Virus record (IMG/VR): IMGVR_UViG_3300044800_000405
Span: 1-50,456 of that record
Reading direction: 5' to 3' (one strand)
Source of the DNA: a virus
Taxonomy: Duplodnaviria > Caudoviricetes
Length of the DNA: 50,456 nucleotides
In this document: positions 7,237-48,112 of the stretch, piece by piece
Layout of the letters: each line of letters opens with the position of its first letter
Numbering within the stretch: position 1 is the stretch's first letter
The notes under the pieces: model-generated
What the model was told of the DNA's origin: nothing
Databases searched by the model: none
Seen by the model: only the letters and a program-made list of their open reading frames with translations
Program-made: the position numbers and the translations under genes

Positions 7237-7264
7237 TTGACACCACCAGCACTTTGGGAAAAAT
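7237..7264 (+). promoter_or_regulatory. Promoter with CCACCAGC motif; leaderless-like start at 7271
   Basis: TTGACA 7237-7242 directly followed by CCACCAGC; weak -10 AAAAAT 7259-7264. Confidence 0.6.
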
Positions 7265-7270
7265 GTTCAC

Positions 7271-7603
7271 ATGGCCGCAGTCAAAAAAATAACCAAGTCC
7301 CCCAAAGAAATCCTGCCCGGTCAAACCGCCTGGGGAATTTTTGACCGGCGGGATGGGAGTTGGATAGGGAATGATGACGGCCCGCAATTATACATAGATT
7401 GCCAACACAATGGCCTTCCCTTGTCCGGTCGGGAACTGGCGCAATTAGGCGCGGCTGTTATTGGTCAACGCATGCGGCTTCCCATGGGCCAGCTTATTGC
7501 CCGCCAATATAATGAAAATGCCAACCAGGAAAAAGAAACCATCTATCCGGCCATTTCCGCCGAGCAGGCATTGAGTGAAATTGAAGCCGGACGTTTTATT
7601 TAG
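7271..7603 (+). CDS. Hypothetical protein
   Basis: 110-aa ORF behind its own promoter. Confidence 0.65.
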   Translation: MAAVKKITKSPKEILPGQTAWGIFDRRDGSWIGNDDGPQLYIDCQHNGLPLSGRELAQLGAAVIGQRMRLPMGQLIARQYNENANQEKETIYPAISAEQALSEIEAGRFI

Positions 7604-7607
7604 CCTT

Positions 7608-8249
7608 ATGATAATTGTTTCCTCCTTCCGCCCCTTTGACGGCTGCCCGGAGCCAATCTGGCAGCAACAACTCGCCGCCAACCGTTCCTGGACCAACATT
7701 TTCGAGCGCATCTTTTATTTCAACCAGCGCGATCAGCGCCTGACCTCCGCCAAGACCGCTTTCCTGCCCACCAACGGCAAGCCCGCCATCCGCGCCCTGG
7801 CCGCTTTCTGTGGCGGCCTCAACGACTGGTCCGCCATTGTAAATGCAGACATCGTCATCCCCTCCAACTTCCGCCGGGTGGAGGAAGCCTTGCGCAAAGG
7901 GCCCGCCGGCTGTGCCGTCAGCCGCCGCTACACCCTCCCGCCGGATGGCGAGACCTCCGGCGCCCGGCTCACAGACCTGGGGCTGGACTTCTTTTGCGCC
8001 ACTCCAATTGTCTGGAAAACCGCCGCCGAAAAAATCCCGGATTCCTTCCGCCTGGGCCGCATCACCTGGGACAACTGGATGCTCAACTTTTTCATGGCGG
8101 AATTTGGCAACCATTGTTACGACCTCACCCCTTCACACGTTGTCTTCCACCCCATGCACGAGCACCGCATTGACCAGAATTGGTCTTTCCCCAAAGACGA
8201 CCCCTACCTGCTCAAAAACAACTGGCCCTTTCACTCCATTGAAATATGA
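7608..8249 (+). CDS. Putative glycosyltransferase-like protein (paralog of 6576-7235)
   Basis: IVNADI, SRRY, LDFF, WDNWM, FHPMH motifs; ATG at 7608. Confidence 0.55.
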   Translation: MIIVSSFRPFDGCPEPIWQQQLAANRSWTNIFERIFYFNQRDQRLTSAKTAFLPTNGKPAIRALAAFCGGLNDWSAIVNADIVIPSNFRRVEEALRKGPAGCAVSRRYTLPPDGETSGARLTDLGLDFFCATPIVWKTAAEKIPDSFRLGRITWDNWMLNFFMAEFGNHCYDLTPSHVVFHPMHEHRIDQNWSFPKDDPYLLKNNWPFHSIEI

Positions 8250-8629
8250 GGGACTGGTCTTTTCTAAACCGCCACCGCATCCGGCAGGGGCCATTGGCGT
8301 CCGCCGATGCCCAGGGTTTCAAGGGCGCATTTAGTTTTCCCCTGCCCGGCGAACCCCGCCGGGTTTATTGCATCATCAGCGACGGGCTGGGCTGGGAACA
8401 TGTCTCCGTTTCCTTTGGCCACAACCATGCAATCCCATCGTGGCTTGTCATGGAAAAAGTAAAGAACCTTTTTTGGAATGACGATCAGTGGGTAATTCAG
8501 TTTCATCCACCGGCCAAAGAATACGCCAACAATCACCCCGGCTGTCTGCATCTCTGGCGGCCCCTTGGTAAAGAATTTCCCACGCCGGATTCCATCCTGG
8601 TCGGGTTGAAAGGGGTCGCTCTTTTTTAG
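8246..8629 (+). CDS. Conserved phage hypothetical protein
   Basis: GWEHVSVS...PSW..M..VK.LFW...QFHPP..EY.NNHPGCLHLW, a motif widespread in phages. Confidence 0.75.
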   Translation: MRDWSFLNRHRIRQGPLASADAQGFKGAFSFPLPGEPRRVYCIISDGLGWEHVSVSFGHNHAIPSWLVMEKVKNLFWNDDQWVIQFHPPAKEYANNHPGCLHLWRPLGKEFPTPDSILVGLKGVALF

Positions 8630-8663
8630 CCTTCAGCATTCAGCCTTTAGCCTTCGTTTTTCC

Positions 8664-8693
8664 TTGACGCTCACCACCACCAGCGCCTATCGT
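8664..8693 (+). promoter_or_regulatory. Promoter of rpmI-rplT with CCACCAGC motif
   Basis: TTGACG 8664-8669, CCACCAGC 8677-8684, TATCGT 8688-8693. Confidence 0.65.
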
Positions 8694-8704
8694 TTGCGCT
8701 CTTT

Positions 8705-8914
8705 ATGCGACGACCCAAAGGCATCAAAACCAAAAAGTCCGTGTCCAAGCGGTTCAAAATCACCGCCACCGGCAAAGTCCTGCGCCGCCACGCCGGCAGG
8801 CGCCACCTGGCCCAGACCAAAAATCCCAAGCGCCGCCGCCATCTCCGCCGGGCGGTAATTGTTGACGCCACCGATGCCTGCCGCATCACCCAAAACCTGC
8901 CCTTCCACCACTGA
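8705..8914 (+). CDS. rpmI: 50S ribosomal protein bL35
   Basis: KTKKSVSKRFKITATGKVLRRHAGRRHL..K..KRRR.LR signature. Confidence 0.95.
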   Translation: MRRPKGIKTKKSVSKRFKITATGKVLRRHAGRRHLAQTKNPKRRRHLRRAVIVDATDACRITQNLPFHH

Positions 8915-8954
8915 TTATTCTCTCAACCCTCAACCCTCAACTCTCAACCATTTC

Positions 8955-9329
8955 ATGCGAGTCACCAACGCCGCCGCCTCCCGCAAACGCCGCAAACGCA
9001 TGGTCCGCTCCGCCCTCGGCTTTCGTGCGCGCCGTTCCAAGCTTTACCGCTACGCCTCTGACGCCCTGGATCATGCCCGCCAGTACGCCTACCGCGACCG
9101 CCGCGTAAAAAAACGCGTCTTCCGTTATCTCTGGCAGGTGCGCATCAATGCTGCCGCTCGTGCCGCCGGCCTCACTTACAGCCGGTTTATTGCGGGCCTC
9201 AAGGCCGCCCGGTGCGCGCTCAACCGCAAAATACTTGCTGACCTTGCCGCCACCGACTCCCCCGCCTTTGGTGAACTCGTGAACATCGCCCGAAACGCTG
9301 GGACAAACCCCAATAAACCCCCGGTATGA
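8955..9329 (+). CDS. rplT: 50S ribosomal protein bL20
   Basis: MRV...RKRRKR...GF...RSKLYR...YAYRDRRVKKRVFR.LW..RINAAAR..GLTYSRFI.GLK....LNRKILADLA; ATG at 8955. Confidence 0.96.
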   Translation: MRVTNAAASRKRRKRMVRSALGFRARRSKLYRYASDALDHARQYAYRDRRVKKRVFRYLWQVRINAAARAAGLTYSRFIAGLKAARCALNRKILADLAATDSPAFGELVNIARNAGTNPNKPPV

Positions 9330-9389
9330 TTACTCGTGTTTGACTTTAGCCTTCAGCCTTCAGCCTTCAGCCTTCGTTTTCCCGTCCCA

Positions 9390-9418
9390 TTGACAGACCG
9401 CCATTCCACCTTTAACGG
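9390..9418 (+). promoter_or_regulatory. Putative promoter of portal operon
   Basis: TTGACA 9390-9395, 17 nt, TAACGG; GTG start 6 nt later. Confidence 0.5.
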
Positions 9419-9424
9419 TAAAGT

Positions 9425-11809
9425 GTGGAATTTACCCATGCTCAATCCGTCGAGCAAGTTGTCTGGCAAATGCGTTTAGCCGACTGGCCCCGTGCTCAAA
9501 ACCGTGCTCGCATCAACAATCTGGCCAACGGCTGGCCGCCCTATTCAGATACCGAGGCTGCCGCCAACCAGATCGCCGTCAACTACAACGACCTTTCCCT
9601 CTCCAACATCGCCCACAACGCCCGCCGCCAGTTGTCCAACGCCCTTATCACGCCAGACCCGCTTTTTTCCGTAGAGCTGGACCACGGCCCCGTCTGGCGC
9701 CGGCAAGAATGGGCCGGCATCATTCAAAAGCATCTGAACCAAATCATCCGGGGTTCGCTGCCCTACCTGGAAACCCGGCGCAGCGTCTTCGCCCTTTTAT
9801 CCCTGCAAGGCATCGCCCCCTCGTCCTGGCCAGACGCCTGCTCGTGGTGCCCGGAGGCAGACGGCGTCGAAGATATTCTCGTCCCCTCCAACATGCTCCT
9901 GTCCCTCAAAAATCTTCCCTTTATCGCCCGCTACCGTCAGTACACCGGGCGCGAATTGTGGGAAATGACCCATCGGCCCCAGGTTGACCCCGGCTGGAAC
10001 GTGCCCGTGGCGGAAAAAGCTGTTCGGTGGGTGGACCAGCAGGCCAAGCAACTCATGTCCGCCTCCTGGCCGGAAGTCTGGTCCCCGGAAAAAATGGAGG
10101 AACGCCTCAAGCAGGATGGCGGCCTCTATTCGTCCGATGCCATCCCCACCGTGGACTGTTTTGAATTCCTGTACTGGAATGACGAAGGCAAGCAATCCGG
10201 CTGGCGCAAAAAAATCATTCTCGATGCCTGGGGCGAACCCGGCGTGGGCGGCGCCGGCGGCATGCTTATAGACTCGCGCCCCAGCAAGCAGCAAGGCAAG
10301 CACGGCGTCTGGAACTTTGACAAGGCCGAGTTCCTTTACGATTCCGAGGCCCGCGCCAACCCCGTCTTTTGTTCCCGGCTGGACCAGGCCATACATTTTC
10401 AATTTGCGGATTGTTCCTGTGTCGCCCCCTTCCGTTATCACAGCGTCCGCTCCCTGGGCTTTTTGCTCTACTCCATCTGCCACCTGCAAAACCGCCTCAA
10501 CTGCAAGTTTGACGAGTCCACCTTCGAGCAACTCATGCAGTACTTCCGCGTCTCCAATCCCAGCGATGCCGAACGCGCCTGGAAAGTGGACCTTACAGAT
10601 AAAAAGGCGCTCCCCGATGGCCTCCAATTTGTCAAGCGCGATGAGCGGTGGGAGGTGGATCACCAGCTCATTCAAATGGCCCTCGCCAAAAACCGGCAAA
10701 TCATGGCCGATAATTCCGCCAGTTTCACCCAGGATTTTGATATGGAGTCGGGCGAGAACGAGACCGCCACCCGCACCATGGCCAAGGTCAACACCAGCGC
10801 CGCGCTAGTCAGCGGCATGCTCAACCAGGCGTACAACTACCAGAAGTTTCAGTACGATGAAATCTGCCGCCGCTTTTGCCTGGCCAACTCGCGGGACCCG
10901 GACGTGCGCAAATTCCGCCTGGCCGTCCTGCGCGCCGGCGTGCCGGAAGAAGCCCTGAACATCGAGCGTTGGAACATCCAGCCCGTCCGCGTCATGGGTG
11001 GCGGCAACAAAATGCTCCAGACCGCCATCTTTGATAAAATCATGGTCCTCTACTACAACAAGCTGGACCCCTCCGCCCAGCGCCACTTTCTCCGCGCCGG
11101 CATCGCCGCCCTCACTGATGATTACGAACTGGCCCGGCAATCCGTGCCCGAAGAACCCGTTATCAGCGATTCCATTCACGATGCCCAGTTGGCCGCCGGC
11201 GTCATGCTCCAGGGCCTGCCCGTGGCGCTCAAGGAAGGAGTAAACCATGGAGAGTATGTCGAGGCCCTCTTGCTGGCCATGGCCGTCAAGGTCCGCCAAA
11301 TCGGCGGCGCCCAACGGCCCATCACGCCCGATGAACTCACCGGCCTGCAAAACCTGGCGGGTGAGACCATCCAGGGCCAGCCCGTCCAAGGCAACGGCGT
11401 CCGCAATCACCTGGCATTGATGGCCGAGGATGAAAAACCGCTGCACGTCAAAGGCGTGCCCCCGGATCACATCGTCAAGCAAAAGGTCAAACAGTACGAG
11501 GACGCCCTGGCCAAGCTTATGAACCAGGTCAAGGCCCTGGCCCAGCGCGCCGCCCAGGCCGCGCAGAAACAAAAGGGCCAGAACGGCGGCGGACTCGATC
11601 CTGAAACCGCCACCAAGCTGCAAGGCCAGATGATCCTCGCCCAGGCCAAGGCCCAGAACACCCGCGAGTCCCACGCCCAGCGCACCGCCCAGCGCCAGAT
11701 ACAATTCGAGCAACAAATGCAGCAGGACGCCCAGAAACATTTGCAGGAACTCCAGCACGACCGCCTCAAACAAATGTTTGAATATGGAAATGACGCCGCA
11801 ACCAACTAG
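9425..11809 (+). CDS. Putative portal protein (podovirus/P22-like size, Gln-rich coiled-coil tail)
   Basis: 794 aa; ETATRT motif region; Q/A-rich helical C-terminus; phage structural context. Confidence 0.65.
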   Translation: MEFTHAQSVEQVVWQMRLADWPRAQNRARINNLANGWPPYSDTEAAANQIAVNYNDLSLSNIAHNARRQLSNALITPDPLFSVELDHGPVWRRQEWAGIIQKHLNQIIRGSLPYLETRRSVFALLSLQGIAPSSWPDACSWCPEADGVEDILVPSNMLLSLKNLPFIARYRQYTGRELWEMTHRPQVDPGWNVPVAEKAVRWVDQQAKQLMSASWPEVWSPEKMEERLKQDGGLYSSDAIPTVDCFEFLYWNDEGKQSGWRKKIILDAWGEPGVGGAGGMLIDSRPSKQQGKHGVWNFDKAEFLYDSEARANPVFCSRLDQAIHFQFADCSCVAPFRYHSVRSLGFLLYSICHLQNRLNCKFDESTFEQLMQYFRVSNPSDAERAWKVDLTDKKALPDGLQFVKRDERWEVDHQLIQMALAKNRQIMADNSASFTQDFDMESGENETATRTMAKVNTSAALVSGMLNQAYNYQKFQYDEICRRFCLANSRDPDVRKFRLAVLRAGVPEEALNIERWNIQPVRVMGGGNKMLQTAIFDKIMVLYYNKLDPSAQRHFLRAGIAALTDDYELARQSVPEEPVISDSIHDAQLAAGVMLQGLPVALKEGVNHGEYVEALLLAMAVKVRQIGGAQRPITPDELTGLQNLAGETIQGQPVQGNGVRNHLALMAEDEKPLHVKGVPPDHIVKQKVKQYEDALAKLMNQVKALAQRAAQAAQKQKGQNGGGLDPETATKLQGQMILAQAKAQNTRESHAQRTAQRQIQFEQQMQQDAQKHLQELQHDRLKQMFEYGNDAATN

Positions 11810-12161
11810 CTCCCCACTCCCTCTCCCCGCTGGGCGGGGAGAGGGCCGGGGGGAGGGGCCAGCTTTTATAGAACGAACCCCGCAACAAATTGACGAGGCC
11901 CGCACCCAGGCCGAGATCGCCCGGCAGGTCAAGCGCGCCGCGCCGCCCATGAATTTCGCGGCGGTGGAGAAACGCGCCCTGCGCCAGCATCCGCCCCTGT
12001 TCCGGTCCACCCAGCCCGTCCCCGCCTCAGTCCGTCAGGCCGAGGCCGCCATGGTAAACGCCGCCGCGAAACCTTCCCCTTCTCCTGGGGGAGAAGGCCG
12101 GGATGAGGGCGGTTGTAAATGTGCGCGCACACCCAAACGCAAGCGCCACGTCCTGCCATGA
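11784..12161 (+). CDS. Hypothetical protein containing two in-frame REP-like palindromes
   Basis: ORF overlaps both neighbours; GRGEGRGEG and PSPGGEGRDEGG peptides. Confidence 0.45.
   Translation: MEMTPQPTSSPLPLPAGRGEGRGEGPAFIERTPQQIDEARTQAEIARQVKRAAPPMNFAAVEKRALRQHPPLFRSTQPVPASVRQAEAAMVNAAAKPSPSPGGEGRDEGGCKCARTPKRKRHVLP
11819..11858 (+). repeat. REP-like palindrome CCCTCTCC-Nx-GGAGAGGGCCGGGGTGAGGG; copies near 12078, 13872, 15879, 17281, 22739, 32369, 38451, 38561, 49690
   Basis: 10 copies read directly, all in the same orientation. Confidence 0.9.
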
Positions 12162-18522: not shown

Positions 18523-18597
18523 TGCGGGGTAGAACAGTGGTAGTTCGGCAGCCTCATAAACTGCTTGTCGGTGGTTCGATTCCACCCTCCGCAACCA
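18523..18597 (+). tRNA. tRNA with CAT anticodon (Met, initiator-like body), CCA encoded
   Basis: Cloverleaf: TGCGGGG/CTCCGCA acceptor, GAAC/GTTC D-stem, CTCATAA loop, GGTGG-TTCGATT-CCACC T-arm, ACCA end. Confidence 0.92.
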
Positions 18598-18610: not shown

Positions 18611-18638
18611 TTGACCCTGTCTGCTGGTGGTGTAAATT
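18611..18638 (+). promoter_or_regulatory. Promoter of the Cas12f-like gene with GCTGGTGG in spacer
   Basis: TTGACC 18611-18616, GCTGGTGG 18623-18630, TAAATT 18633-18638. Confidence 0.6.
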
Positions 18639-20260: not shown

Positions 20261-20869
20261 CCCGCAGCGACTAAAATTAAAGCTGTCGGCTTCGGGGGTT
20301 CCGTGTCAAACCGTTGCTTCTTTTGCCAGAAAGCCCGCAGCGACTAAAATTAAAGCTGTCGGCTTCGGGCGATGTCTTGTAGCGAAAGAGTTTAACACCC
20401 GACTCCCGCAGCGACTAAAATTAAAGCTGTCGGCTTCGGGAGTGTCCTGAAATAATTCCACGAGGTCGAAAGCCCCCCGCAGCGACTAAAATTAAAGCTG
20501 TCGGCTTCGGCTTCGCACCGCGAAATCAAGAAGCTGGACAAGCCCCCCGCAGCGACTAAAATTAAAGCTGTCGGCTTCGGGCGCACGCCGTTTGTGGAGA
20601 GCCGAACTGAATTCCTGCCCGCAGCGACTAAAATTAAAGCTGTCGGCTTCGGGGTGAAACGCGATGTTGACACCGGCAACAAACTTATTCCCGCAGCGAC
20701 TAAAATTAAAGCGGTCAGCTTCGGGTCGCCACCAGTAGAGAGTTTTGGAGAGGAAGAAATCCCGCAGCGACTAAAATTAAAGCGGTCGCCTTCGGGTTGC
20801 CTGTTGGGTTGACAGGATGACCACAACCCGCCACCCGCAGCGACTAAAATTAAAGCGGTCAGCTTCGGG
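20261..20869 (+). CRISPR. CRISPR array: 9 x 36-bp repeats (CCCGCAGCGACTAAAATTAAAGCTGTCGGCTTCGGG), 8 unique spacers of 34-37 bp
   Basis: Repeats start at 20261, 20334, 20405, 20476, 20546, 20618, 20690, 20761, 20834; repeat 4 ends in C; repeats 7-9 carry substitutions; orientation inferred. Confidence 0.97.
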
Positions 20870-20886
20870 CTTACAATCACAGATTC

Positions 20887-22728
20887 CTAAAACGTCAGCG
20901 CATGTTGCTTCCGTTGCTCCCGCAACTTGTCCTGCCGTTTCATAAACCAGTCCCAGGTGGAATTCTCCGCCGGCACATCCGCGCCCAGGCGTTTGATCTT
21001 GAACCCGCGTTGCCGCGCCCCTTCCAGCGCAATCGCCAGCCAGTCAAACAGGTCCGGGCTTTTGCCCATCCGCTCCTTGAGTTCATCCTTCGGCTCCACT
21101 TCAATCTTGTCGCCCGCCACCGTCTTGTACTCGCGCCAGCAGCCCTCGGCCATCACGTCCTCCGGCAACTCTCGCATCTGGCCGCTCTCTATCGTCTCCC
21201 GCACGCTAAACCACATCTCCGTTATGAACTTGCTGTAATGTTCCTCGCACCGTTTCAGCCGGCGCCGCCCGTCCTTTTCAGCTACCCATAAATCCCAACG
21301 CACGGGCCGCGTCGTCGTCCGCGCCCCGGCGTCCACCGGCACCGGCGGGTTAAAGCCAAACTTCCGCGCAAAGGCAAACCCCACCGTCCCCTTGCCGAAT
21401 GAATCGTAAAAACAATTGTCCGGCGCTATCCCGTTGGCTTCCAAATCCTCCTTCACCAGGTCCGCTATCTGGTCTTCCGGCGGCAGGGCCGGGTTCACAA
21501 TTATTTTCAATATGCGCGGCGGGTTCACCCGCAAAATCTGCGTGCCCTCGGCACTCTCCCCAAACTCTATCCATCCGCCCACGCAGCGGTCCCCGCCGCC
21601 ATAGGCCGGGTCCACGCTGTAAATGCGCGGGCGCGGTTTGCCCGCCCACACCGCGCGCTCGTGCGCCCCGTGCAGCCGGCACAATTGCCGGGTTATCACG
21701 CGCGAATGTTCCAGCCCTATCCGCATCCGGCCCATGATTTGCGTCTCATACTCCGGCGAGTTTTTCCCGTAATCATGCGCGATAATCCGCTCATAATCGT
21801 GCCCAATCAGTCCCTTGTATTGGTCTTGTGGCTGGTCAAAGTTCGGACTGTCCAGCCCAATCAAATTCACGCACACCCCGCCCAGCAGTTTGATGGGCCA
21901 CACCTGCGTCTTTTCCAGCCCGTCCACCGCCGGCCAGCCCTCCAGCGGCTCGCCCACAATGCCCAGTTGATCGTTCGGGTCGTGGCGCGGATTCCCGCTC
22001 CCAATCACCTTCAACCCGCCCGCGCCCGTGTTGCTCCGCATGTTTGGCAGGCAGCCCAGGAACGTCGGCGCCATGAACTGCAATTCGTCGCACTGAAACC
22101 GGAACCGTTTTTGTTTTATCCCCGCAAAGTTCCCCAGCCCCACCCATTGCTTGCCCACATAGCACGCCTTGCAGAAAATTCCCTTGCGCAGGTCCCGCGC
22201 GTCCTCGCTGTCGGCGGCGCGGTCGTCCGTCGCAATGCGCTGTTTGTATTCAATCAAGTGTCCCGCCAGCCAGGAATAATTTTCCCGGCCCGCCTTCCAT
22301 AAACTTTTCATCTCGCCCCACACGGCGTCTTCCAGTTTGTCCTTGGTCGTGCTGCTCACCAGCACCGCCGTTTCATCCGGGTAACACCAGTAATCAATCA
22401 GGCTGAACTCGCTCGCGTGGCTCGTCTTCTGGCTCGAAGCCGCCCCCATCAAAATCGTGATGCTGTTCTTGATTATCTCCCGGTAAATCAACTCGCTCCA
22501 ACGGTGGCAGTAACGGTCCGGCCAGATCAATTTGCGCGCGTTCAAATAATGCCGGAGCAACTCGCCTTCCCCCTCAGACTGTGGACTGTGGACTGTGGCC
22601 TCTGGACTGTGGACTGTGGACTGTGGACTCAAGACTTTTTTCCACGTCCTCCGTATCATGTTAAACTCCACGGCCAGCGCATCCGGTTTGCGCTGCCATT
22701 TCTGCCCGTATTGGTCCTCGTAAATCAT
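20887..22728 (-). CDS. Terminase large subunit
   Basis: Walker A-like MGAASSQKT, Walker B FQCDE, GSGNP, RNase H-like SVDPAYGGGDRCV and KSPDLFD. Confidence 0.85.
   Translation of the reverse strand: MIYEDQYGQKWQRKPDALAVEFNMIRRTWKKVLSPQSTVHSPEATVHSPQSEGEGELLRHYLNARKLIWPDRYCHRWSELIYREIIKNSITILMGAASSQKTSHASEFSLIDYWCYPDETAVLVSSTTKDKLEDAVWGEMKSLWKAGRENYSWLAGHLIEYKQRIATDDRAADSEDARDLRKGIFCKACYVGKQWVGLGNFAGIKQKRFRFQCDELQFMAPTFLGCLPNMRSNTGAGGLKVIGSGNPRHDPNDQLGIVGEPLEGWPAVDGLEKTQVWPIKLLGGVCVNLIGLDSPNFDQPQDQYKGLIGHDYERIIAHDYGKNSPEYETQIMGRMRIGLEHSRVITRQLCRLHGAHERAVWAGKPRPRIYSVDPAYGGGDRCVGGWIEFGESAEGTQILRVNPPRILKIIVNPALPPEDQIADLVKEDLEANGIAPDNCFYDSFGKGTVGFAFARKFGFNPPVPVDAGARTTTRPVRWDLWVAEKDGRRRLKRCEEHYSKFITEMWFSVRETIESGQMRELPEDVMAEGCWREYKTVAGDKIEVEPKDELKERMGKSPDLFDWLAIALEGARQRGFKIKRLGADVPAENSTWDWFMKRQDKLREQRKQHALTF
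22576..22629 (-). repeat. (CCACAGT)n heptamer array in frame within terL
   Basis: GGACTGT units on +; encodes SPQSTVHSPEATVHSPQS. Confidence 0.85.
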
Positions 22729-47089: not shown

Positions 47090-48112
47090 ATGCCCAATCG
47101 CATCCTCAAAGCCAGGCTGCGCCAATCCGAACGCTGGAACAAATGTTCCGAGCCGGCGCAAAACCTCTACGTCCGCCTGCTCATGTTGGTGGACGATTTT
47201 GGCCGGTATGAGGCCCATCCCACCCTTCTCGCCAGCGAGGGCTATCCCTATGGCGACCCCGAAGGCCACCCCATGCCCGTCGAGACCGTTACCAACCGAC
47301 TCCAAGAATTGACCGCGCACGACCTGCTTTTCCTTTACCAGGTTGAAGGAAAACCCTACTTGGAATTAACCCGCTGGCAGGAACGCACCCGCCGGGCCAA
47401 CAGCTTTTTCCCTGCCCCCAACCCAACAGACACCAGGCAGACACCAGGTGAACACCAGGCAGACACCAGGCAGACACCAGGTGAACACCAGGCAGACACC
47501 AGGCAGACACCAGGCAGACACCAGGCAGACACCAGGCAGACACCAGGCAGCCGCGCGGCCCTTACGCCTTCGCCTTCGCCTTCGCCTACGCCTACGCCTA
47601 CGCCTTCGCCTTCGCCTACGCCTACGCCTACGCCTACGCCTACGCCTTCGCCCGCGCCCGCGCCCGCGCCCGCGACGGTCGCCGAGTTGGTTTCTTCGGT
47701 TGTTAAAAGAATTGCAGAAAAGACCAAAGACACGCACGCAGATATAAAAAACCTTTTGTGCATCGCCTACAACCGCCCGGAGGACCAGTCTTGGTCTTAC
47801 GTCGAGGAAGCCACCCTGGCTGAAATTGCCCGGCGCCCCAAAGCCTTGGCCGAGGTTAAATTGCTTTTGGACTTCCGGCGCAAGCTGTCCCAGCCCGACC
47901 GCAAGTATTTTCCCCAATCCATTTTGTCCCTGCTCCAAAAATGGGATGAAAAATTGGATGCCTCACGGGGCCTCCAACCCCGCCCCATCAAATCTTCCCG
48001 TCCCTTTGCCCCGCCTCCCAACTCCAGGAAATTTATCCCTTCGGAGAATTTGGGCCGGCAATTCCGCAATCAGATTCAAACCATCATGGCAGAACCAGGA
48101 AAGGCCAAATAA
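47090..48112 (+). CDS. Phage replication initiator (replisome-organiser-like)
   Basis: MPNRILK...SE......S..A...Y.RL...VDDFGR N-terminus; internal iterons. Confidence 0.8.
   Translation: MPNRILKARLRQSERWNKCSEPAQNLYVRLLMLVDDFGRYEAHPTLLASEGYPYGDPEGHPMPVETVTNRLQELTAHDLLFLYQVEGKPYLELTRWQERTRRANSFFPAPNPTDTRQTPGEHQADTRQTPGEHQADTRQTPGRHQADTRQTPGSRAALTPSPSPSPTPTPTPSPSPTPTPTPTPTPSPAPAPAPATVAELVSSVVKRIAEKTKDTHADIKNLLCIAYNRPEDQSWSYVEEATLAEIARRPKALAEVKLLLDFRRKLSQPDRKYFPQSILSLLQKWDEKLDASRGLQPRPIKSSRPFAPPPNSRKFIPSENLGRQFRNQIQTIMAEPGKAK
47427..47550 (+). repeat. 11 tandem 11-bp iterons (CAGACACCAGG / TGAACACCAGG): putative replication origin
   Basis: Read directly; located inside the initiator gene, as in lambdoid origins. 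Confidence 0.8.
47563..47673 (+). repeat. Hexamer tandem repeat (TACGCC/TTCGCC/CGCGCC) encoding a PT/PS/PA linker
   Basis: Read directly. Confidence 0.85.

Follow-up and report, generated by a model that had tools for sequence, protein, structure and literature searches.

The 50,456-nucleotide stretch of DNA analysed here (the window) is the whole of IMG/VR virus record IMGVR_UViG_3300044800_000405 (Duplodnaviria; Caudoviricetes), a linear record with a completeness estimate of 93%. It carries an intact rpmI-rplT gene pair, encoding the ribosomal proteins bL35 and bL20. Most probably, a tailed phage of peat Verrucomicrobiae with a genome of roughly 50-55 kb has captured a self-contained host rpmI-rplT unit. 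Within the window the pair forms, with hardly any room for doubt, an accessory cassette, lodged in a hypervariable cargo slot with a conserved phage gene on either side. The two genes of the cassette are:

8705-8914, plus strand: rpmI, encoding bL35, 69 aa (Pfam PF01632 Ribosomal_L35p, E 3.7e-20)
8955-9329, plus strand: rplT, encoding bL20, 124 aa (Pfam PF00453 Ribosomal_L20, E 1.2e-36)

Both products score far above the cut-offs of their Pfam models, bL35 with 72.5 bits (cut-off 28.9) and bL20 with 125.5 bits (cut-off 30.8), the latter covering positions 1-107 of a model of 107. Each aligns along its length with the corresponding chains of solved ribosomes, the best chain for bL20 having an E value of 1.7e-29. 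Neither rpmI nor rplT contains a frameshift or an internal stop, and the start codon of rplT is the ATG at 8955, not 8956. Judged from their sequences, the products look like ribosome-competent bL35 and bL20. In PHROGs, there is one family for each of the two proteins, both labelled as being of unknown function. The first-pass annotation of this DNA had described an intact phage-borne pair, and the full-length Pfam matches, the open frames and the phage genes on both sides bear this out.

The slot in which the pair resides is defined by the following genes:

7575-8249, plus strand: conserved phage gene, 224 aa, left border of the slot (68-80% identity in 5 of 7 related viral loci, tblastn)
8246-8629, plus strand: DUF7694/phrog_7839 gene, accessory cargo (PF24746, 5.8e-24; phrog_7839, 9.7e-21)
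9425-11809, plus strand: conserved gene of 794 aa, right border of the slot (7 related viral loci)

The window is collinear with G002, a complete relative with terminal repeats, from 1051 to 49983, and its large terminase gene (20887-22728, minus strand), tail-fibre genes, replication initiator and VRR-NUC nuclease were recognized with Pfam and PHROGs. The slot itself, 8246-9400, is the only stretch unmatched to G002 between the flanks 7608-8245 and 9401-12043 (blastn). The gap between the two border genes measures 1176 nt in the window and 124, 392, 413, 815 and 1005 nt in relatives, where each slot carries different small open reading frames (ORFs). One small slot ORF is common to three relatives (slot regions of L002, L003 and L005). 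The start of the DUF7694 gene overlaps the stop of the left border gene, and this cargo gene was found in none of the seven related loci by tblastn. The 794-aa protein is 82-87% identical in five related viral loci and 48% in two. It has no Pfam match even at E values up to 10 and no PDB sequence or profile match, and its sole match in PHROGs at E up to 1 (0.028) is to a family of unknown function. Its only functional lead is an ESM-Atlas cluster in which SU10_portal is present in 11% of the members. The position given earlier for the pair, between a phage hypothetical gene and the portal gene, holds for the DUF7694 gene and the conserved 794-aa gene, but the portal label has no Pfam, PHROG or PDB support; the gene is a portal-like candidate.

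The cassette is not an assembly chimera, a possibility against which the first-pass annotation had warned. In run X3, to which no possible-source flag is attached, one contig of 4377 nt covers 7900-8774, and further contigs cover 8756-8948, 8969-9148, 9163-9373 and 9346-9900, all with 0 mismatches. The depths of these five contigs, in order, are 23.4, 19.6, 27.2, 17.7 and 23.2, so that the cassette is covered like its flanks. Run X1, a possible source, covers 7900-8949 and 9119-9892 and thus bridges both junctions, and contigs of X4 cover 8616-8949. The exact bL20 sequence is present on three contigs. Contig breaks are confined to arrays of heptamer repeats and to stretches common with cellular copies. 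The low-depth runs (depth 2-5) leave parts without cover, namely 8704-8904 and 9240-9306 in X5 and the region beyond 9440 in X4. Four joints were considered as cassette-free forms and rejected (8655 to 8920, 8757 to 9081, 8847 to 8951 and 9101 to 9177); each side spans 21-30 nt and falls within a heptamer array or a host-like stretch, and the joints are taken as probable products of other organisms or repeats. The cassette-bearing stretch is present in eight peat-metagenome runs, and the cassette is, practically beyond dispute, part of the phage population in several peat samples.

With regard to its origin, the pair was in all likelihood captured from peat Verrucomicrobiae in one piece of ~640 nt, reaching from the host -10 box to near the 3' end of rplT. 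The nearest cellular bL20 copies are 80-85% identical, and those that are named belong to metagenome-assembled genomes (MAGs) of Verrucomicrobiota, Verrucomicrobiae or Limisphaerales. Residues 1-115 of bL20 are 85% identical to host copies, and bL35 reaches up to 85.5% against Verrucomicrobiota copies. On the DNA level, positions 8702-9298 of the window (597 nt) align with host loci L041 and L030 at 85.4% and 84.8% identity, respectively, each in one unbroken blastn alignment including the spacer between the genes. A scan of species genomes yielded 80 loci, nearly all from Verrucomicrobiota, and bL35 lies directly upstream of bL20 in 79 of them; the exception, L069, begins 131 nt before rplT and thus has no bL35 row. 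The phylogeny against host copies that had been proposed as a check was calculated from 74 concatenated codon rows by a quick IQ-TREE run, with support from the SH-like approximate likelihood ratio test (SH-aLRT) only. Here, the phage copy nests among the Verrucomicrobiae: it joins L030 and L026 (support 98) and L041 (100) within a clade of 14 rows (99), which includes a bog Limisphaerales MAG. The end branch of the phage is 0.16 long, compared to 0.015-0.026 for its neighbours. Because several bL35 differences between the phage and its three nearest hosts represent the commoner host state, the true donor appears to be unsampled and part of the phage branch cellular.

The gene neighbourhood in the hosts explains one feature that had been ascribed to the phage. 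The usual infC and pheS neighbours are indeed missing, since neither gene was found in the window by a Pfam scan. However, infC was also found in none of the 80 host loci within the fetched flanks (tblastn with host IF3), and in both host genomes where the IF3 gene was found, L030 included, it lies on another contig. In L030, the pair sits between a family-2 (GH2) glycosidase gene and an opposite-strand hybrid histidine kinase gene. Since the pair stands alone in the donor lineage, the absence of these neighbours is inherited and not made by the phage. The donor unit is compact and self-contained and would therefore be liftable by a single recombination event. The GC skew of the cassette, -0.259 compared to -0.144 to -0.211 in 13 hosts of the clade, is displaced towards the strand bias of the phage, which is a weak sign of time spent in the phage. 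On the plus strand of the whole window, the GC skew is strongly and evenly negative (-0.02 to -0.24 in each 2-kb bin).

Both ends of the cassette are informative on how it was joined to the phage. Two promoter-like sites are relevant here:

8664-8693, plus strand: sigma-70-like promoter site TTGACG-18-TATCGT (consensus scan, 9/12 matches)
9390-9418, plus strand: promoter-like site TTGACA-17-TAACGG before the 794-aa gene (read from the sequences; below the pass mark of the consensus scan)

The consensus scan returned one promoter-like site in 8200-9500, compared to 0.2 expected. Its -10 box ends 11 nt before the ATG of rpmI, so that the leader would be very short. The spacer of this site contains CCACCAGC, which occurs 15 times in the window (2.9 expected). 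The motif is found again, behind a TTGACA hexamer, at 239-267 and 7237-7264, which rank first among the promoter-like sites of the first 20 kb. Among the host copies, 17 of 18 aligned leaders share the conserved promoter CTTGCC-17-TATAGT, and the -10 box together with the following bases (8688-8704 of the window) is invariant between the phage and four host copies. Compared to the host leader, the phage copy lacks ~22 nt and its promoter spacer has gained six bases. The CCTTGACGC stretch of the cassette promoter resembles the -35 region before the 794-aa gene in relatives and differs from the host spacer at the same place in just one or two of nine bases; the left junction was probably formed here. 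As TTGACR and CCACCAGC are phage-like while the -10 box is host-derived, the promoter is a hybrid, and its previous designation as phage-type fits its upstream part but not the -10 box. The site at 9390-9418 is kept in relatives as CCTTGACG-N17-TAACGT, and the blastn match to G002 resumes at 9401, within this site. In L005, a different short tandem repeat stands right before this conserved promoter (L005:5930-5965). At four sites (239-267, 7237-7264, 8664-8693 and 18611-18638) the -10 box ends 6-11 nt before an ATG, which suggests that the phage makes leaderless or nearly leaderless messages.

Three arrays of heptamer repeats accompany the cassette:

8628-8655, plus strand: (AGCCTTY)4 array followed by GTTTTTCC, a copy of an element dispersed in phage and host
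8922-8949, plus strand: (CTCAACC)4 array in the rpmI-rplT spacer, inherited with the operon
9344-9375, plus strand: (AGCCTTC)4.6 array followed by GTTTTCCC, at the position of the host terminator

The similarity to the hosts fades near 9298. After rplT, the host copies have a terminator consisting of a hairpin plus T-run, whereas the phage has the AGCCTTC array instead, and a scan for terminator-like sites on the plus strand found none in 8200-9500. The right-hand array together with its GTTTTCC (9344-9384) nearly duplicates the module at 8628-8664. In the spacer between the two genes, CTCAACC heptamers are found at the same place in hosts L041, L030, L042 and L023.

Arrays of both kinds are dispersed over the phage, with 25 matches compared to 0.41 expected. 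Those of the form (AGCCTTY)3-5 occur at ten places (3669, 8628, 9344, 12364, 15238, 15420, 15732, 17091, 22792 and 26508) and those of the form (CTCAACC)3-5 at nine (4395, 5483, 8922, 15931, 16008, 17330, 18144, 26210 and 39399). All are on the plus strand and most lie just 5' of start codons; a reversed control pattern of CTCAACC gave no match. Among the five host-clade genomes searched, AGCCTTY arrays are present in all and CTCAACC arrays in four. Thus, the heptamer arrays are real, as noted previously, but they are elements shared by phage and host and do not delimit the cassette: the spacer array came along with the host operon, and AGCCTTY is found at ten places in the phage. The AGCCTTY arrays may represent a translation-initiation or insulator element common to phage and host. 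Some of the (CTCAACC)3-5 arrays lie within long ORFs, others just before start codons. Six of the ten AGCCTTY arrays are preceded by (A/T)TGTTTC; four of these six read as a mini-ORF of nine codons ending in TAG, and in five of the six the ATG of a gene follows within ~10 nt. The density of AGCCTTY amounts to 10 arrays per 50 kb in the phage, compared to 10-30 pattern matches per host genome of 2.7-5.2 Mb.

The pair is under purifying but relaxed selection. When the phage is paired with each of its ten nearest hosts, the ratio of nonsynonymous to synonymous divergence (dN/dS; Nei-Gojobori) is 0.22-0.31, compared to a median of 0.19 for 459 host pairs with similar dS. Splitting the distances in triplets assigns to the phage branch a dN of ~0.11, a dS of 0.33-0.39 and a dN/dS of about 0.28-0.35, or 0.23-0.25 for the core of bL20 without its tail. 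In the bootstrap analysis, the phage branch has a dN/dS of 0.31-0.35; the 95% range is 0.19-0.57 for this branch and 0.04-0.25 for its cellular sisters, and none of 2000 resamples reached 1. A decaying capture, the other possibility raised in the first-pass annotation against its own reading, is thus at odds with these values, even though selection is relaxed. Before residues were counted, four bL35 rows with a non-ATG start as extracted and one bL20 row of 209 aa (L048) were left out. The bL35 of the phage is unchanged at every column with at least 95% conservation, and its two unique residues are within the host range. An attempt to polarise the bL35 changes against the three nearest sisters was dropped, as several phage states proved to be the commoner host state, and the count of unique residues was used instead.

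Concerning the function of the pair, we tentatively propose, at somewhat less than an even chance, that it feeds host 50S assembly. Here, the pair would be transcribed from the rebuilt promoter, with phage-like -35 box and spacer and host -10 box, into a nearly leaderless two-gene message, and since there is no terminator, transcription would presumably run on into the 794-aa gene. As in the host, rplT would be translated from the CTCAACC spacer that was inherited with it. Ribosome-competent bL35 and bL20 would then supply the 50S assembly line of the host during a long infection of a slow-growing cell, and, with part of the leader missing in the phage copy, their synthesis would be free of any feedback on the host's own leader. 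According to PMC10931766 (section 3.7), the first step of 50S assembly requires bL20, whose synthesis is feedback-controlled. Ribosome remodelling, as suggested earlier for this pair, is possible. In its boldest form, which we regard as unlikely, the explanation would make this phage the first known virus to encode, in a feedback-free operon with bL35, a core early-assembly ribosomal protein that is not exchangeable (bL20). This would imply that slow-growing soil Verrucomicrobiae make new 50S subunits while infected, with the phage driving or re-tuning assembly and possibly with subunits marked by phage bL20 (K21L, new C-terminal tail).

The main rival explanation is a neutral passenger: illegitimate recombination would have brought the pair into a slot of fast turnover, where it confers no benefit and will be lost, and the constraint would stem from the unsampled host part of the branch. 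This falls short of being probable, but it is a serious contender, and a number of results speak against a role in 50S assembly, several of them fitting a passenger. The cargo of the slot differs in each relative, in content as well as in length, and neither bL35 nor bL20 was found in any of the seven related viral loci by tblastn; likewise, PF00453 has no match in the five related records that were profile-searched whole, three of which are complete with terminal repeats. In the metagenome scan, the best 80 of 289 relatives include no copy above 84% identity and none with phage neighbours. The nearest sampled donor is just 85% identical, so that much of the branch could be cellular, and a short neutral spell in the phage is therefore possible. 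The cellular sisters have a dN/dS of 0.09-0.12 in the bootstrap analysis (0.10-0.13 in the triplet split), and that of the phage branch is about three times as high. In bL20, five changes affect columns that are at least 95% conserved (K21L, G41A, E80A, L116G and K119P), the most of all 79 rows, as the other 78 have two at most. Ten of its residues are unique among the 79 rows (others seven at most), five of them in the tail, and the last ~10 residues match no host tail; K21L is among the unique residues, and the replaced tail may reflect a 3' frameshift or the junction. Furthermore, bL20 as an early-assembly protein can enter only newly built subunits, in contrast to the loosely bound, exchangeable proteins that are enriched in viruses according to Mizuno et al. 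(2019, PMC6375957). Altogether, the case is weakened by the singleton status of the pair and its relaxed constraint. One solved bL20 has S at the position of K21 and gammaproteobacterial copies have A at that of G41, so that none of the changed positions is a universal invariant. Against a passenger stand both frames, intact across 585 coding nt, the unchanged conserved columns of bL35, the absence of resamples with a dN/dS of at least 1, and a cassette depth equal to that of the flanks in an independent sample. Base composition has moved towards the phage, and this shift and the intact frames argue against a short neutral spell in the phage.

Two further explanations compete with a supply of 50S assembly and are considerably less credible. 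Phage bL20, alone or with bL35, could be an RNA-binding repressor of the host rpmI-rplT, of IF3 where linked, or of phage messages. Such a regulator is improbable, although the phage copy, without ~22 nt of the host leader, could escape such control and bL20 has lineage-unique changes. It would leave bL35 unexplained, and the 18 host leaders have a weak consensus fold (-7.8 kcal/mol, with a two-sided change in 1 of 25 pairs). No L20 leader (presumably Rfam RF00558) was found at gathering score in the window or in three host loci. Since infC lies apart from the pair in the donor lineage and these leader analyses revealed no bL20 operator, although one of an undescribed type is conceivable, the manipulation of host IF3 suggested by the first-pass annotation has no basis here; moreover, E. 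coli infC is not under bL20 control according to PMC10931766. An artefact, caused either by chimeric assembly or by cellular DNA at the margin of a prophage that was wrongly classed as viral, would match the appearance of the other L20 matches examined in viral collections (5 of 5 in GenBank, 3 of 3 in IMG/VR). For the present pair it is extremely unlikely and largely refuted. The nearest conserved phage genes are no more than ~0.5 kb away to the left and 0.1 kb to the right, and a complete relative aligns collinearly with the window. In an independent sample, contigs of equal depth extend across the left junction and the point where host homology ends. The cassette has phage-type flanks and differs by 15% from all cell copies sampled.

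Elsewhere in the window, a few further features were observed. The Rfam search at gathering scores had a sole match over the window and the three host loci:

18523-18597: phage tRNA with anticodon CAT

The promoter-like site at 18611-18638 stands directly before the gene 3' of this tRNA, with its -10 box ending 9 nt from the ATG. Inside the replication-initiator-like ORF (47090-48112), an 11-mer is repeated 11 times and a hexamer 15 times at 47427-47652; these repeats may be origin iterons. Beside the terminase gene, at 20405-20725, there are two overlapping tandem arrays with a period of 70-72 nt and 2.5 copies each. In addition, a G-rich motif of 22 nt, GGGGAGAGGGCCGGGGTGAGGG, occurs in ten copies with at most three mismatches (0.01 expected), at 11836, 12088, 13889, 15895, 17297, 22750, 32379, 38461, 38572 and 49707. 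All ten are on the plus strand, though that strand is otherwise C-rich.

The search of viral databases for the pair, also proposed in advance, shows how rare such cargo is. In GenBank, 15 of 50,697 phage records contain bL20 matches, all of less than 60% identity. Five of the 15 were examined, and IF3 is directly upstream in each; the annotated ones also have thrS, pheS or integrases alongside. In IMG/VR, two conserved bL20 peptide patterns led to three confirmed loci, two with IF3 at the contig end and one beside a histidine kinase and a response regulator on a 279-kb contig, and a bL35 pattern matched only this same contig; these scans used one or two degenerate peptide patterns, which divergent copies can escape. 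A first scan of IMG/VR with a single bL20 protein, which had returned only a fragment of 17 residues (L009), was superseded by alignment-based scans. All eight of the other L20 matches examined in viral collections are cellular-looking flank, which calls for caution in surveys. Full-text literature searches found no report of a phage-borne L20 or L35. The main text of Mizuno et al. (PMC6375957) is without bL20 and bL35, and the supplements as far as covered, which excludes the table of all 13 proteins, have them only in E. coli mass-spectrometry rows. The pair is thus apparently an unreported kind of phage cargo, phage ribosomal proteins as such being already known.

The phage-encoded ribosomal proteins reported so far are mostly single, surface-exposed and exchangeable. 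What makes the present pair notable is the buried position of bL20, an assembly protein, together with the capture of an entire host operon in one event; it extends the catalogue in both respects. If it is functional, some phages of slow-growing soil bacteria would invest in ribosome biogenesis, beyond the tuning of existing ribosomes. The capture also links an uncultured phage lineage to a specific clade of peat Verrucomicrobiae, a link supported by the shared heptamer arrays.

In comparison with known systems, the closest cellular counterpart is the infC-rpmI-rplT cluster, which is autoregulated by bL20 via a translational operator in E. coli and the L20 leader in B. subtilis. The phage pair agrees with it in these two genes, their order and the short spacer between them, but it is without infC and without a matching leader RNA, its leader is truncated, and in the donors, too, the genes are unlinked from infC. 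A second counterpart is given by the morons of lambdoid phages, which are accessory genes that bring a promoter of their own and are inserted amid conserved genes. Like these, the pair is of foreign origin, comes with its own promoter-like site, lies in a slot of variable content flanked by conserved genes and is absent from close relatives. In contrast to morons, no terminator-like site follows, and the cargo is a core translation operon and not a gene of lysogenic conversion.

Among phages with ribosomal protein genes, the jumbo cyanophage PhiMa05 encodes bS1, bL21, bL27, bL33, uL11 and uL1 according to a preprint (10.1101/2025.09.23.678156). It likewise has more than one such gene, some of them adjacent (bS1-bL21-bL27 and uL11-uL1), but these six proteins do not include bL20 or bL35, and its genome is of jumbo size compared to ~50-55 kb here. 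The viral ribosomal proteins described by Mizuno et al. (2019, PMC6375957) include bS21, bL12, bL9, bL31, bL33, bS6, uS9, uS15 and HPF; of the contigs concerned, more than 99% have a single ribosomal protein gene and eight have two. In contrast to that set, mostly of single genes, a whole two-gene operon is present here, and it does not recur in related phages. What both have in common is a host-derived ribosomal gene among phage genes that is under purifying selection and was presumably sampled and then kept.

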